Positions 1,323 through 6,223 of a DNA stretch of 16,410 nt are shown in pieces. The position numbers and the translations under genes are program-made. A model generated the notes under the pieces. That model saw only the letters and a list, made by a program, of their open reading frames with translations, had not been told where the DNA came from and did not search any database. The DNA is from a virus. Its lineage: Duplodnaviria; Heunggongvirae; Uroviricota; Caudoviricetes. Numbering within the stretch: the first letter of the stretch is position 1; every line of letters starts with the position of its first letter. The DNA is taken from the IMG/VR virus record IMGVR_UViG_2778261139_000010; one strand, 5' to 3'.

Positions 1323-1419
1323 GAGGCCAAAAAGAATACAGATTTATAAGTTACTGATTTTTAATGTTCAGCTGGTTTTTTATACATTAGTGAATTACGC
1401 GTTAAAGCGTGCGAAAAAA

Positions 1420-1450
1420 GGCATAAAACAAGATTTTATGCCTTTGTATT
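1420..1450. terminator. Hairpin GGCATAAAA-caaga-TTTTATGCC flanked by A-run upstream and T-rich tract downstream; possible bidirectional intrinsic terminator
   Basis: 9-bp perfect stem, 5-nt loop, followed by TTTGTATT on the plus strand and by CTTTTTT on the minus strand. Confidence 0.45.
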
Positions 1451-1604
1451 AACATGAATTTAAATGATTTTATCCTGATTATTCCTCTTTCTGTAAACCA
1501 TGCGACACCAACATTTGCCAACTCTGAATCATCCTGACACAATCAGACACATCCCAACGCAATAGAACACGAAATAACTCTTTAAGAAACGAAAGGGGGC
1601 AATA

Positions 1605-1793: not shown

Positions 1794-1973
1794 AAAGACT
1801 GGCGGCACACAGCCACCACCAATCCATTATTGACCGATACCGGGATCTCGGTATCGGGAATAAACGCCATAATACTGAGGTATAACCATGATGAAATATA
1901 CGCCCGTACAGGGGCGGGGATTCGTTCGCCCTGGTGAATCTGAAAAGCCATGCTATAGGGTATTTTCAGGCAT

Positions 1974-2007
1974 AAAAAAAGCGGTCCCGATATGGAACCG
2001 CCTTTCT
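1974..2007 (-). terminator. Intrinsic terminator for the minus-strand small-gene transcript
   Basis: Minus strand reads GCGGTTCC-atatc-GGGACCGC (one mismatch in stem) followed by TTTTTTT; lies about 65 nt downstream of the minus-strand ORF ending at 2070. Confidence 0.5.
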
Positions 2008-2069
2008 GAACAATTAACCCGCTGCGCCGTATGTGTCAACAATCATAAGCCCGAACATGATAACCGTGA

Positions 2070-2273
2070 TCAGGCTGGTGGGCAATTACCTTGCTTGTTG
2101 GGGCCGTATTGTGCTGCCATTTTCATCCGTTCAGAACGTGAATATTTTTTTAGAAACTCATCAAGGACAAAAGCGCATGGAGCGAATCTTTCTGATTCAT
2201 GCTCGAGCGCCATATTTTCGTGCTCTCTGTTCGTTTTTTGCGATGGTGTATTGGTTGATTCTTTATTGGTCAT
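2070..2273 (-). CDS. Hypothetical small protein downstream of RHH-1
   Basis: 67 aa; ATG ACC AA start exactly 57 nt after the RHH-1 stop, same arrangement as 2787..3014 after RHH-2. Weak SD. No recognisable family. Confidence 0.4.
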   Translation of the reverse strand: MTNKESTNTPSQKTNREHENMALEHESERFAPCAFVLDEFLKKYSRSERMKMAAQYGPNKQGNCPPA

Positions 2274-2281
2274 TGTGTGTA

Positions 2282-2364
2282 CCTGTAAAGCAATGCGCCG
2301 TAGTACCTCACGCCACGGCGCTGATAGTAATTATTCTGATTCTTTGGCCTTGCGGCGCTGGCGG
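2282..2364. repeat. Copy 1 of an 83-nt near-identical repeat spanning the RHH-1 3' end and the downstream intergenic hairpin
   Basis: 3 mismatches in 83 nt versus 3023..3105, while the rest of the two RHH genes has diverged. Confidence 0.85.
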
Positions 2365-2510
2365 CGTTTGATCTCGCCTTTTGCTGCCGTAACTAGAAAT
2401 CCGGCGGTACTTTCGCCAGGTTCTTTAAGTTGCTCAATATCGGTCATTACCTCATGCGGGATTCTGACCGTTGTCATTTGTGATTTTGCGTTCTTTGCAC
2501 CTGTTGCCAT
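2331..2510 (-). CDS. Ribbon-helix-helix-like DNA-binding protein (RHH-1), candidate repressor
   Basis: 59 aa MATGAKNAKSQMTTVRIPHEVMTDIEQLKEPGESTAGFLVTAAKGEIKRRQRRKAKESE. Strong SD AGGAG 8 nt upstream. Beta-strand (TVRIP), helix, G-E-S turn, helix pattern. Paralog of 3072..3251. Confidence 0.65.
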   Translation of the reverse strand: MATGAKNAKSQMTTVRIPHEVMTDIEQLKEPGESTAGFLVTAAKGEIKRRQRRKAKESE

Positions 2511-2530
2511 TTCTGGTTCTCCTGATAATC

Positions 2531-2623
2531 GGTGTATTTCAGTATACGCAAAAAAAAAGATAAAAAAAGTCTTGCGGTGTATTTCACCTGAATGTAGATT
2601 TAAAAATAAAGGTGAAATACACC
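2531..2623. promoter_or_regulatory. Module-1 operator cluster: GGTGTATTTCA (2531), GGTGTATTTCACC (2576) and its exact inverse GGTGAAATACACC (2611), bracketing a sigma70-like rightward promoter (TTGCGG 2572..2577, 17-bp spacer, TAGATT 2595..2600)
   Basis: Exact repeats and inverted repeats read from the sequence. Promoter assignment is by eye from hexamer match and spacing. Confidence 0.55.
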
Positions 2624-2786
2624 CAAAACAACAACGCCCCGCAGTGATGGGAACACATACGGGGCGTCTAACCAAACCATTAATTGAGGTAACGATTATG
2701 GCTATAAAAGAGCATAGCTTACTCTTTATACACACACAAACGCCCCGGAAACGGAATAATCCGTTTCATAGTTCGGTTTTGTGTAC

Positions 2787-3014
2787 TCATCCTGGCGGGC
2801 GATTCTTACGGGACTTTAGCCGCCGTGGGCAGCTTGCTAAAAATGCCTCCAACGCGAATAGTCCAGGTTTCATTTCTATCGGTATTAGTTGGATATTCAG
2901 AGGATTAGCCAGTTCGGCTTCAAGGCGAGCACAGGTTTCTAACTGCCTTTGCCGAATGATTTCATCTTCTTGCGTCTGCGTGTCTTGTATTGGTGATAGT
3001 GTGTTGTTGGTCAT
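2787..3014 (-). CDS. Hypothetical small protein downstream of RHH-2
   Basis: 75 aa; ATG ACC AA start 57 nt after the RHH-2 stop. Central region looks coiled-coil-like (EDEIIRQRQLETCARLEAELA). No recognisable family. Confidence 0.4.
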   Translation of the reverse strand: MTNNTLSPIQDTQTQEDEIIRQRQLETCARLEAELANPLNIQLIPIEMKPGLFALEAFLASCPRRLKSRKNRPPG

Positions 3015-3022
3015 GATACTGC

Positions 3023-3105
3023 CCTGTAAAGCAATGCGCCGTAGTACCTCACACCACGGCGCTGATAGTGATTATTCTGATTCTTTGGCCTTGCGACGCT
3101 GGCGG
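3023..3105. repeat. Copy 2 of the 83-nt near-identical repeat (RHH-2 3' end plus intergenic hairpin)
   Basis: See 2282..2364. Confidence 0.85.
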
Positions 3106-3251
3106 TATTCAACTTCCCGCTTTAATGCAGCTGTAACAAACTGCCCTGTACTTTCGCCGGGCATTTTTACCGCCTCAACATTGTTCATAACTTCATGTGG
3201 AACCCTTGCCGCAACTGTTTGTGATTTTGCGTTTACTGCTTTTGTCGCCAT
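3072..3251 (-). CDS. Ribbon-helix-helix-like DNA-binding protein (RHH-2), candidate repressor of the rightward early operon
   Basis: 59 aa MATKAVNAKSQTVAARVPHEVMNNVEAVKMPGESTGQFVTAALKREVEYRQRRKAKESE. Strong SD GAGGGGGG upstream. Below the 60-aa cutoff of the ORF track, found by reverse-complementing the repeat. Confidence 0.65.
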   Translation of the reverse strand: MATKAVNAKSQTVAARVPHEVMNNVEAVKMPGESTGQFVTAALKREVEYRQRRKAKESE

Positions 3252-3301
3252 GTTGAGCCCCCCTCATAAAAAACAAATGCAGTATGCAGGAAAAAAAATA
3301 A

Positions 3302-3354
3302 GTGTTCAACACTTGACGTGTTTAACACCTCGATTTAAATTGGTGTTCAACACC
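3302..3354. promoter_or_regulatory. Module-2 operator cluster: palindromes GTGTTCAACAC (3302), GTGTTTAACAC (3318), GGTGTTCAACACC (3342), overlapping a sigma70-like rightward promoter (TTGACG 3313..3318, 17-bp spacer, TAAATT 3336..3341)
   Basis: Three copies of a self-complementary 11-13 bp site positioned at -35, in the spacer and just after -10. Classical repressor/operator geometry. Confidence 0.6.
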
Positions 3355-3443
3355 TTATTTAGGCAAGGTGTAGAAACGACGAAACCCCGCACTGTAGGAG
3401 CAGTAACGGGGCTTCTAACCAACAACGTAAACGAGGAGCCGTT

Positions 3444-3641
3444 ATGGTTGCCGTAAATCATATACCACACCTTGTACACACACAAACTGCCTTTGTGTGG
3501 CGTTTTCTGGCCCTGAGTGCCGGAGAATCTCAAATCATCCACGTAACCGCCTGGACGGAACGCGAAGCGCGTAGCCGTTGCCCGTCCGGTTGTGTTGCTG
3601 TATTTGCCGCCCGTATTCGTCAGGAGGTGCGCCATGATTAA
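3444..3641 (+). CDS. Small protein resembling Icd-like (host cell-division inhibitor-like) proteins of P1/P4-type elements; first gene of the early operon
   Basis: 65 aa, SD GAGGA 6 nt upstream. FVWRFLAL...TEREAR...VFAAR pattern recalled from Icd-like annotations; family call is from memory. Confidence 0.45.
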   Translation: MVAVNHIPHLVHTQTAFVWRFLALSAGESQIIHVTAWTEREARSRCPSGCVAVFAARIRQEVRHD

Positions 3642-4529: not shown

Positions 4530-4829
4530 ATGAAACTTAAATATTCTGGCTTAACTGCCAGTGGCAACACTCACCCTAAATTTACGCGCGGTGATATTTA
4601 CCGCGACCAGTACGGCGGCACGGTAATGATTAAGGGCGTGGCGGGACGGTGCGTAACTTACCGCCGTGAAGGTTACGAATATGATTGCGTGATGCCTGTT
4701 TATCAGTTCCGGCGTGATTTTTCTCTGGTACAGACCGCGCCGCATAACGTGCCCACCAGCAGGGAGAAAGCACGCGCCAATATTCAGAAGATGAAAAACA
4801 TGATTAACGGATTCAGGGGCAAGAAATGA
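4530..4829 (+). CDS. Hypothetical protein (early operon, immediately upstream of rep)
   Basis: 99 aa; GGAGA SD; stop overlaps the rep start (ATGA). Confidence 0.55.
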   Translation: MKLKYSGLTASGNTHPKFTRGDIYRDQYGGTVMIKGVAGRCVTYRREGYEYDCVMPVYQFRRDFSLVQTAPHNVPTSREKARANIQKMKNMINGFRGKK

Positions 4830-6223
4830 AAAGCGCACCGAACTTAAAAAAACAGCCTTACGACAAGATGACCGAAGTCATCATTTTTGCGGGTAGTGAT
4901 GCGTGGGCACATGCGAAACAGTGGCAGGAACAGGACGGGCGACTGGCTGGCGATAATGTGCCTCCCATTGTGCTGGCTGATGATCAACTGGATGAACTGG
5001 CAGACCTGAGAATCATCGACGAGGGGCGCTATTGTGTCCGGCTGTACAAGGCAGGCCACATCAGGCCATCAAATATTAATGCCATTGCGCACAAGCTGGC
5101 GGCGGCGGGCGTAACTGATGCGAATTATTACCCCGAAGGGATACACAGCCAGAAGCGGGAGAACTGGCGCGAATATCTGGAACGGGAGCGGGGGAAAAAG
5201 CCAGGGGAAGAACACCACCAGCGAAAAACCACGCTACCGATGAGCGTTGGATCTGCCGGATACGACACGCAATTAGATTACGTGGTAAAGGGGATTATTC
5301 CGGCATCGTCGCTATGCAGCATATACGGGGCAAGCGGTTCCTATAAATCATTCCTTGCGGGTTCGTGGGCGTGTCACGTTTCCACGGGCCGCCAGTGGGG
5401 AGGCCGCAGGGTGGCGCATGGCGCTGTTCTCTATGTGGTTGGTGAAGGCGGTATCGGCGTTCCGCGTCGTGTAAAAGCCTGGGAAGTTGTGCACGGTGAG
5501 CAGGTAAAAAATCTGTATCTGGTAAACCGTCCGGTCTTTCCGGCGGTCCCGCTTGATGTTGATGAAATGGTTATCGCTGCCCGTCAGGTGGAGCGGGAAA
5601 CGGGTAAACCTGTACGCATGATTATTCTGGATACGCTGGCGCGTTGCTTTGGTGGGAATGATGAAAATGATTCCCGTGATATGGGGGCGTTTATCCGTGG
5701 TTGTGACGAACTGAAACGACGCACAGGGGCCACGGTGCTGGTGGTTCACCATTCCGGCAAGGATGAGACGAAAGGCGCGCGCGGTTCCAGTGCATTTCGT
5801 GCATCACTGGATGCTGAATACCGGATACGCAGGGAGGACGCAGGAAGCGAAGCGCTGGTTATCTCATGCACCAAAATGAAGGACGCGGAGGAACTCAAAG
5901 AAGCCGCATATGACTTACGCGTGGTGGAGCTGTTTACCGACGCTGACGGGGAGTTAATCACGTCGCTGGTGGTGGTGGATAAGCCGCGCCCTCCCGTTGA
6001 ACTGGAGCGCATCGAGGAGGCAGGCAACAAGACGGAAAACCATACCGCACTATGGGGGTGCATCCGTTCACGCACACAGAACGGCGACAAGTGCACGATC
6101 CCGCTGTTACGTGATGACATGAAACGGCTTGGGTATGACGTGAAAAATATGCGGCGATGGTTAGCCAAACTGGAAAAAGACGCCGTGATTTACATTGATG
6201 GTGATGATGTAGGACCACTGTAA
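4826..6223 (+). CDS. RepA-like AAA ATPase / replicative helicase-type replication initiator (satellite rep)
   Basis: 465 aa. Walker A-like GASGSYKS and Walker B-like MIILDTLA. Followed immediately by an iteron array. No obvious primase motifs seen by eye. Confidence 0.7.
   Translation: MKSAPNLKKQPYDKMTEVIIFAGSDAWAHAKQWQEQDGRLAGDNVPPIVLADDQLDELADLRIIDEGRYCVRLYKAGHIRPSNINAIAHKLAAAGVTDANYYPEGIHSQKRENWREYLERERGKKPGEEHHQRKTTLPMSVGSAGYDTQLDYVVKGIIPASSLCSIYGASGSYKSFLAGSWACHVSTGRQWGGRRVAHGAVLYVVGEGGIGVPRRVKAWEVVHGEQVKNLYLVNRPVFPAVPLDVDEMVIAARQVERETGKPVRMIILDTLARCFGGNDENDSRDMGAFIRGCDELKRRTGATVLVVHHSGKDETKGARGSSAFRASLDAEYRIRREDAGSEALVISCTKMKDAEELKEAAYDLRVVELFTDADGELITSLVVVDKPRPPVELERIEEAGNKTENHTALWGCIRSRTQNGDKCTIPLLRDDMKRLGYDVKNMRRWLAKLEKDAVIYIDGDDVGPL

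Follow-up and report, generated by a model that had tools for sequence, protein, structure and literature searches.

A hairpin that precedes an Icd-like gene raises the question of which RNA strand it folds in, and of what it does there. The gene lies in a 16,410 nt stretch of viral DNA (IMG/VR record IMGVR_UViG_2778261139_000010; at its full length referred to as the window), which is a capsid-forming phage-inducible chromosomal island (PICI) or P4-like satellite, and in which positions 3302-3641 make up the control region and first cistron of the early (replication, packaging) operon, following the plan of P4 with different parts. The first-pass annotation of this region had placed the hairpin in the mRNA leader of the gene, and had suggested a c4/CI-type immunity RNA as known from P1 and P4. 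Our analysis of the sequence points to an unannotated cis-antisense RNA of ~80 nt as the most likely product, running from about 3451 to 3370 on the minus strand and covering the Shine-Dalgarno (SD) sequence and the AUG of the Icd-like gene. The features from which this reading was built are as follows.

3444-3641, plus strand: Icd/Kil-like first cistron, 65 aa (NF033153, 64.7 bits)
3381-3415, minus strand: stem-loop 2 (SL2), the two-tier hairpin annotated earlier in the leader; predicted intrinsic terminator of the antisense RNA, with a U-rich tail to about 3370
3415-3451, minus strand: stem-loop 1 (SL1) of the predicted antisense RNA (82 nt fold)
3457-3485, minus strand: predicted antisense promoter, with -35 TTGTGT (3485-3480), a 17 nt spacer and -10 TATGAT (3462-3457); start at about 3449-3452
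2627-2740, minus strand: antisense cassette of module 1, with its hairpin at 2627-2683 (72.9 bits) and SL1 over the remnant AUG at 2699
2712-2740, minus strand: predicted antisense promoter of module 1, with -10 TATGCT (2717-2712, at +13) and -35 TTGTGT (2740-2735)
3479-3508, plus strand: hairpin inside the Icd-like gene, CACACAAA-ctgcc-TTTGTGTG followed by GCGTTTTCT (z = -0.44)

Conservation and strand of the leader hairpin

The first cistron matched the NCBIfam model NF033153 ('host cell division inhibitor Icd-like', cut-off 25) with 64.7 bits, with the same model giving 52.6 bits for P1 Icd and 76.1 bits for P4 Kil, and its earlier description as Icd-like was thus borne out by the profile search. 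Division-inhibiting or killing activity is attached to P1 Icd (record note) and P4 Kil (PMC10111431), and by family match may be shared by the subfamily found here. Two PHROGs (phrog_1743 and phrog_6196) name the Icd/Kil family 'transcriptional repressor', a label that probably goes back to the 'cI gene product' of older P4 annotation, predating the recognition of the immunity factor as an RNA.

The CCCCG (3385-3389) and CGGGG (3407-3411) arms noted earlier are present, and belong to a longer two-tier hairpin at 3381-3415, which on the plus strand folds with -16.6 kcal/mol (z = -3.6), with none of 200 shuffled sequences being as stable. Likewise present is the cognate hairpin described for module 1, the first of two tandem regulatory modules, with arms CGCCCCG (2635-2641) and CGGGGCG (2660-2666; -18.4 kcal/mol, z = -3.7). 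Relatives were located through the Icd protein, giving 80 IMG/VR loci and 15 genomes of other genera, the latter including Klebsiella, Enterobacter, Pectobacterium, Rahnella and Rosenbergiella. The promoter and operator sequences of these relatives are wholly different, yet the hairpin followed by C-U-N-A-C-C-A is found in nearly all of them. Alignment of 32 distinct homologous copies (13 pairs, 414 pair cells) revealed compensatory changes in 11 of the 13 pairs, and a plus-strand covariation score of 0.229 versus 0.058 in shuffled alignments (0/500 as high), with slid controls scoring far lower. A covariance model derived from this alignment matched exactly two places in the window, at 2627-2683 (72.9 bits) and 3375-3430 (69.3 bits), and gave no match on P4, P1 immI, the C4-type locus L088 or an rrn operon.

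The substitutions within the stems are informative about the strand. Within the 414 pair cells, 358 were Watson-Crick pairs and 41 were A·C or C·A on the plus strand, which correspond to G·U pairs on the minus strand, with not a single G·U pair on the plus strand; these sequences are phylogenetically related, and the counts are therefore not independent events. Paired cells reached 96.4% on the minus strand versus 86.5% on the plus strand, the covariation score on the minus strand was 0.384 (neither this value nor that of the plus strand was reached in any of 500 shuffles), and there were 25 additional pair types on the minus strand and 14 on the plus strand. The wobble pattern and the better pairing on the minus strand indicate that the hairpin folds in a transcript of the opposite strand, and the structure thus very likely belongs to a minus-strand RNA rather than to the mRNA leader to which it had been assigned. 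One other interaction of the leader, a long-range pairing of 3362-3371 with 3465-3475 in the coding sequence as seen in the minimum free energy fold, was dropped after it was found not to be kept in relatives.

A predicted antisense RNA and other possible roles for the hairpin

In the 32 copies, the minus-strand stems have folding energies of -16 to -29 kcal/mol (typically -22 to -27), and run into tails such as GUUUUUUG, GCUUUUUG and GUCGUUUC, with a mean of 6.3 U residues within 12 nt after the GC core. A G+C-rich hairpin followed by a U-rich tract was found on the minus strand only, with CUNACCA rather than a U-rich tract following the hairpin on the plus strand, and this strong minus-strand stem with its U-rich tail has the anatomy of an intrinsic terminator. 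A candidate promoter for the corresponding RNA (score 8/12) falls inside codons 5-14 of the Icd-like gene. In 68 distinct contexts, we scored -10-like hexamers on the minus strand (TANNNT, at least 4/6 matches) by their position in the downstream ORF, and all 68 had such a hexamer at a fixed offset from the AUG, unrelated genes included: it is located at +13..+18 in 52 contexts, at +7..+12 with a TGG extended -10 in 14 (with a perfect TGGTATAAT in Nissle), and at +12 in two.

Between this promoter and the terminator, the predicted RNA would form SL1, with the 5' strand complementing the AUG (3444-3446; in homologues it is the complement of AUGGCU or AUGGUU), an apical loop presenting the anti-SD sequence CUCC (complement of GAGGAG, 3433-3438), and UGGUNAG, the complement of the invariant CUNACCA (3415-3421), as 3' strand. 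The absence of variation in CUNACCA would thus be explained by its role as pairing partner of the invariant start region in SL1. Folding of the 82 nt minus-strand RNA of the window gave -30.5 kcal/mol (z = -4.05), which is similar to the 85 nt RNA of module 1 (-33.5 kcal/mol, z = -4.39) and the RNA predicted for E. coli Nissle 1917 (NZ_CP007799, about 1312085-1312190; z = -4.67), and the arrangement of SL1, with the anti-SD sequence in its loop, and SL2 immediately after it was obtained for nearly all of the 32 diverse copies. An icd remnant (AUG at 2699) closes module 1, and its homology to icd stops after CACACACAAAC, a boundary just beyond the TTGTGT (2740-2735), 17 nt spacer and TATGCT (2717-2712) of its own predicted promoter. 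With the homology ending right past the -35 element, the piece retained corresponds to a complete antisense cassette.

In the mechanism that we propose, the antisense RNA would start near 3451 and end at the hairpin at 3415-3381 with its U-rich tail. Its complementarity to the translation-initiation region of Icd is complete, and the RNA should thus block translation of Icd, and repression of Icd translation by a discrete antisense RNA is in our judgement the probable function of the locus, at a confidence somewhat below that for the strand of the hairpin. There are several points which weigh against it. The U-tract of the window itself is interrupted (UUUCGUCGUUUCU) and fails a simple terminator scan, the -35 elements are weak, variable and across the family no better than random expectation, and a stricter promoter scan did not list the antisense promoter. 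The fixed -10-like hexamer lies within coding sequence and may partly reflect a shared N-terminal peptide, and the relatedness of the aligned sequences means that there were fewer independent events than the counts suggest. A mirror image of the structure can form in the mRNA as well, and the hairpin may thus have a role on the plus strand. The antisense RNA, its start and its end are all predictions made from the sequence.

The same strand and terminator evidence would be obtained if the minus-strand hairpin was only a terminator or insulator, protecting the operator and repressor region from stray leftward transcription without any dedicated regulatory RNA, and the weak -35 elements agree with this as well. 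This is unlikely, since the conserved unit reaches past the terminator, with the anti-SD apical loop of SL1 in nearly all 32 copies, the spacing of the -10-like hexamer is fixed in 68/68 contexts, and module 1 has retained the whole unit rather than the hairpin alone.

Action of the hairpin in the mRNA is improbable, and would require it to be a cis-acting element of the 5' untranslated region (5' UTR), for instance an insulating or stabilising structure with a single-stranded CA-rich standby site, which sets translation initiation of the first cistron without an antisense RNA. The hairpin is always located 22-33 nt upstream of the AUG, with the SD sequence in the loop of a short helix, it occurs before unrelated genes and also inside operons just past a stop codon, and the plus-strand fold is significant in itself (z = -3.6), all of which would suit a 5' UTR element. 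Against this stand the 41 wobble-type departures, which are all A·C on the plus strand with no G·U, and the clearly better pairing and covariation on the minus strand, and a 5' UTR element also leaves the fixed minus-strand -10 hexamer and the minus-strand U-rich tract unexplained. In addition, CUNACCA has no complement in 16S rRNA, and a role as translational enhancer by pairing with 16S rRNA was therefore rejected.

Other candidates for the hairpin and its flanking motif were considered and dropped. A tRNA-minihelix or RNase P substrate, consisting of the hairpin and ACCA, would have its ACCA 2-3 nt too far from the helix end, and the ACCA is accounted for instead by pairing with the AUGG region in SL1. 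A CRISPR-repeat mimic and a hammerhead-like core were both judged from the sequence alone, and were set aside as the stems covary freely and core motifs are missing. The enterohaemorrhagic E. coli (EHEC) island small RNA (sRNA) Esr41 was rejected as identity of the predicted RNA, being located in a different island.

The first-pass annotation had also read the hairpin inside the Icd-like gene as an attenuator. The letters are present at 3479-3508, and a simple terminator scan lists the hairpin, with an 8 bp stem and 5 T among the next 8 bases, but a transcriptional attenuator of the operon formed by 3479-3499 and GCGUUUUCU is very unlikely. With -9.9 kcal/mol and z = -0.44 (55/200 shuffles equally good), its stability does not exceed that of shuffled sequence, the U-run begins 3 nt past the stem, and ribosomes translating icd would melt the hairpin. 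The arms coincide with the fixed codons HTQ and FVW, which 47 of 53 related genes share unchanged; in the other six they are swapped without compensatory change, and the hairpin is lost. The hairpin is also absent from other Icd subfamilies and from the Nissle-type Icd gene. Its left arm coincides with the -35 element of the predicted antisense promoter.

There is very little chance that the hairpin and CUNACCAMAA form a boxB-boxA site for Nus factors as in rrn operons and lambda, or a Rho-loading (rut) site, serving processivity over a long operon. The rrnH leader does have a hairpin with boxA 3 nt later, some variants have CUCUUAC, as does lambda nutR, and icd is rich in C toward its 5' end (GC skew of -0.15 to -0.22 over 3410-3549). 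The boxA consensus is GYTCTTTAANA, with mutation of C4 and T6 abolishing function (PMC5725501), and a Nus-factor site was rejected as the family consensus, CKTCTNACCA with N mostly A, leaves T6, T7, A8 and A9 unmatched; furthermore, there is no conservation in the loops, and the evidence on the strand favours the minus strand.

The Icd/Kil genes of P1 and P4 do follow directly on a c4/CI RNA, as had been stated: the P1 record gives the order promoters, a1/b1, c4 RNA, a2, b2, icd, ant1, and in P4 the Rfam C4 model (74.9 bits) and isrK/c4-a1b1 were detected just upstream of the 65-aa NF033153 ORF (76.1 bits). The same scan of the window (E ≤ 1) found no C4 (RF01695, clan CL00128), c4-a1b1, isrK or other family in either leader, with P4 (74.9 bits), L084 (72.6 bits) and L088 (77.7 bits) as positive controls for C4. 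No recurring site complementary to the hairpin loops was found that was consistent across loci, and variation in the loops is not matched in the SD region downstream. A processed, same-strand c4/CI-like immunity RNA with loops pairing near the Icd ribosome-binding site can thus be practically dismissed for this leader, as the precedent of P1 and P4, and of close relatives of this Icd gene which carry a true C4 RNA, is outweighed by the absence of C4-clan or isrK matches at E ≤ 1 (compared to 73-78 bits in P4, L084 and L088), loops which vary independently of the SD region without a recurring target, and a structure that favours the other strand. In module 1, the hairpin top GTGATGGGAA (2649-2658) has a perfect 10 nt complement, TTCCCATCAC, on the same strand in alpA (1701-1710), as is also seen in L002; this was the only 10 nt match found (about 0.2 expected by chance), and cis targets for the loops were rejected as nothing was consistent across loci.

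The C4 RNA fills the same slot upstream of the NF033153 gene in P4, L084 and L088 as the hairpin cassette does here, and the two elements are alternatives for the position directly before icd. In L084, a YlcI module (hairpin and truncated icd included) precedes isrK, c4-a1b1, C4 (72.6 bits) and an intact icd, whereas E. albertii L088 has isrK and C4 only; the layering of a YlcI-type repressor and a true C4 RNA therefore exists in the relative L084, and not in the window. The 'ash family protein' (PF10554) called in relatives, in L084 at 3001-3327 and overlapping the C4 RNA at 2997-3084, is an N-terminal extension of Icd. The first ~45 residues of this extension represent the translated C4 RNA gene, and part of Phage_ASH may thus be no protein domain; at least part of this Pfam family may describe an RNA gene or eta frame.

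Putative repressor modules and the eta-like frame

The other features of the control region and the genes around it are listed below.

1-1230: integrase
1605-1793: alpA (PF05930)
1888-3456, plus strand: eta-like read-through ORF, 522 aa (frame open over 1879-3456, 525 codons)
3072-3251, minus strand: ylcI-2, 59-aa small protein of the YlcI/YnfO family (NF041551), putative repressor of the rightward promoter
3302-3312, 3318-3328 and 3343-3353: three operators GTGTTNAACAC, bracketing the rightward promoter
3313-3341, plus strand: rightward sigma-70-like promoter, TTGACG, 17 nt spacer, TAAATT (consensus scan 9/12)
2331-2513, minus strand: ylcI-1, second putative repressor of the YlcI/YnfO family (NF041551, 62 bits)
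near 2576-2623: module-1 operators GGTGTATTTCACC and GGTGAAATACACC, read from the sequence and unrelated to GTGTTNAACAC
4826-6223: AAA_25/RepA-type replication protein (an SSB is also encoded in the satellite)

The protein layer of control would consist of the sigma-70-type promoter at 3313-3341, placed between three GTGTTNAACAC operators, and bound by a YlcI/YnfO-family protein. The GTGTTNAACAC sites are three perfect palindromes flanking the -35 and -10 elements, and a search allowing one mismatch gave 4 matches versus 0.58 expected; relatives have unrelated palindromes in the same place. The rightward transcript is predicted to start near 3348. The ylcI-2 gene is transcribed divergently from the operators and matched NF041551 with 59.7 bits (cut-off 30), and its product is presumably the protein that binds to the three operators. 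The AlphaFold model of ylcI-2 (pLDDT 88) has an extended N-terminus followed by helices H18-27 and H34-57. With this model, Foldseek returned no significant match, the ribbon-helix-helix (RHH) antitoxin ParD2 being listed at E = 9 with a TM-score of about 0.5, and the sequence had no match in the PDB; an RHH fold is plausible in so far as the model is compatible with it. The idea of layered protein and RNA control, put forward in the first-pass annotation, hence survives in part: an RNA layer over a protein repressor is likely to exist here, but it is not of the C4 type. A 12 bp hairpin, GCGCCGTGGTGTGAGGTACTACGGCGC, is located past the ylcI-2 stop codon (3036-3062, minus strand), with the motif recurring 3' of ylcI-1 and in Nissle, and is probably the terminator of the repressor gene.

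The satellite has the order integrase, alpA, two tandem regulatory modules and replication genes, followed by genes for an HK97-type capsid, protease and portal, HNH and terminase, with host phoQ at the right end. Strain 2014C-3307 contains a 99.5% identical copy at another chromosomal site, in which the PGAP product names are 'host cell division inhibitor Icd-like protein' for the ORF at 3444-3641 and 'YlcI/YnfO family protein' for the divergent gene. The two modules (2331-2745 and 3072-3500) are presumably heteroimmune and arranged in tandem. In both, a repressor gene of the YlcI family is combined with operators of its own, a promoter and the antisense cassette, and the ylcI-1 and ylcI-2 products are 60% identical in alignment. 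The promoter of module 1 would read antisense through an ORF at 2787-3014 and through ylcI-2, toward module 2. Between the integrase gene and alpA there was a weak Rfam match to the Brucella sRNA BSnc120 (1381-1462, plus strand, 27.3 bits with a gathering score of 114, E = 0.012), and this stretch is in effect a hairpin with A/U flanks, and probably a terminator.

A long open frame runs through the whole control region. The ORF at 1888-3456 starts past alpA, crosses both modules with their two promoter regions and both cassettes, is antisense to four small minus-strand genes, and stops 10 nt after the icd AUG. The three plus-strand frames have 1, 29 and 49 stop codons across 1879-3456, and over 1000 dinucleotide shuffles the longest open run was 101 codons on average and 204 at most, versus 525 codons here. 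Among 73 distinct relatives, 66 likewise have a frame of 200 codons or more that stays open across the control region; it shares the reading frame of icd in 37 and ends in a stop codon located from -28 to +10 relative to the AUG in 32. The product had no match in Pfam, PHROG or NCBIfam. In P4, 217 codons are open in the kil frame, which corresponds to eta, and the frame of the window resembles eta in beginning before the immunity promoter, running through the immunity region without a stop codon, and terminating at icd or in frame with it. Translation of P4 Eta is coupled to the alpA homologue and prevents termination, with Kil being a truncated form (PMC10111431), and induction of capsid-forming PICIs requires alpA (10.1101/2022.09.08.507074). 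The ORF at 1888-3456 thus looks like the counterpart of P4 eta, for which by analogy its translation rather than its product would matter.

These elements suggest how control could extend from Icd to the operon. When Icd translation is blocked, the mRNA would be exposed to Rho and the downstream operon silenced, in analogy to P1 icd and P4 kil. Transcripts from the alpA side, translated through 1888-3456, would have no need of the blocked ribosome site, and such read-through translation could by the same analogy bypass both the repressor and the antisense block. We place less confidence in these Rho and bypass steps than in repression by the antisense RNA.

Distribution of the cassette and known systems

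Matches to the leader were detected with BLAST in 1336 of 5426 complete E. coli genomes. Cassettes without an Icd gene were collected by an IMG/VR pattern scan (3' arm and tail fixed) followed by the covariance model, with two further copies (L122 at 4776 and L156 at 1722) coming from the covariance model alone. These copies are found in environmental phage contigs, before genes unrelated to icd, with Zn-ribbon-like genes also among the contexts.

L115 8177-8234, L162 8340-8394, L122 4776-4831 and 11403-11460: cassette before a GIY-YIG homing endonuclease gene
L119 and L124: cassette before an 86-aa Cys-rich ORF
L158 and L181: cassette in uncultured phage contigs, listed with L119 and L124
L156 1722-1776 and 5173-5231: cassette before two genes of a block that also contains ArdC-like, RadC and ParB-like genes

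The non-Icd copies keep both the distance to the AUG and the offset of the -10 hexamer, and nearly all of the ORFs start with ATGGCT. The INPHARED phage collection yielded nothing useful on known relatives of these environmental phage contigs. A cassette before an Icd-like gene and a primase gene was also present in a 16.5 kb record named 'Escherichia phage vB_KppS-Ant' (LR881103.1, L223; 2416-2472, 62.1 bits), in which the region was annotated as one long merged hypothetical protein; this record, deposited as a phage, looks more like a satellite. Whether the ~80 nt unit, with its -10 element inside codons 5-6, its 5' hairpin with the anti-SD loop and its terminator hairpin, represents a new and widespread family of portable cis-antisense RNA genes, which would replace the c4/CI RNA as immunity arm in many enterobacterial satellites, and travel as a cassette with its ATGGCT start before unrelated and potentially harmful genes such as those for GIY-YIG homing endonucleases, is in our view evenly balanced.

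In E. coli, both capsid-forming PICIs and P4-like satellites are common, and the published work on how they are silenced deals mainly with alpA and, in certain elements, with C4/CI RNAs. If the reading proposed here is correct, a quarter of the sequenced E. coli genomes would hold a small RNA that is missing from their annotation and acts as a gate for a toxic Icd/Kil gene together with a replication and packaging operon, and the switch would have three parts, with a bypass by translation next to the protein repressor and the antisense RNA. For annotators, it would give reason to drop the long 'hypothetical' or 'ash family' protein calls across such regions, and the cassette itself would be a compact and apparently portable unit of antisense control, used before unrelated genes.

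The sar RNA of P22 is about 69 nt, covers the ribosome site of ant and ends at an intrinsic terminator, and Rfam holds a sar model. No Rfam family matched either strand of 3370-3451, and the window has no sequence or Rfam relationship with sar at E ≤ 1. The arrangement does resemble P22 immI (mnt, arc, sar RNA, ant), where small repressors act on the promoter and a short opposite-strand antisense RNA acts on the first regulated gene (PMC2629481), with here a putative protein repressor on the promoter and a predicted cis-antisense RNA over the first gene. In contrast to P22, the target is an Icd/Kil-type gene and not an antirepressor, the predicted antisense promoter is located inside the coding sequence of the target, and the cassette also occurs before unrelated genes. 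A further parallel is found in the PeSL cassettes of T4-type phages, short conserved units of promoter and stem-loop at the borders of variable modules, which mark recombination junctions (PMC2839356, PMC4122927). The module borders and the truncated icd likewise coincide with the cassette here, but PeSLs differ in sequence and host, and are same-strand promoter/terminator units rather than antisense RNA genes.

P1 immI also has an Icd-family first gene under RNA control, as is predicted here, and according to the P1 record icd is apparently required for ant expression. However, c4 comes from the transcript that also carries its targets a2 and b2, which lie downstream of it, and the genes downstream in the window are for replication and packaging, and not for an antirepressor. 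With P4, the locus shares a 65-aa NF033153 first cistron heading the replication operon, an RNA that acts (here by prediction) at the translation start of this cistron, and a long nested or read-through frame which crosses the immunity region from the side of the alpA homologue. The P4 RNA is a same-strand, processed RNA of the C4 family with seqA/seqC targets, and P4 has no protein repressor, whereas the window lacks a C4 or isrK match, has a YlcI-type repressor with operators, and has its predicted RNA on the opposite strand. A member of neither RNA family, the cassette is closest to P22 immI for how it works, and to PLE-CI-kil/eta of P4 for what it replaces.

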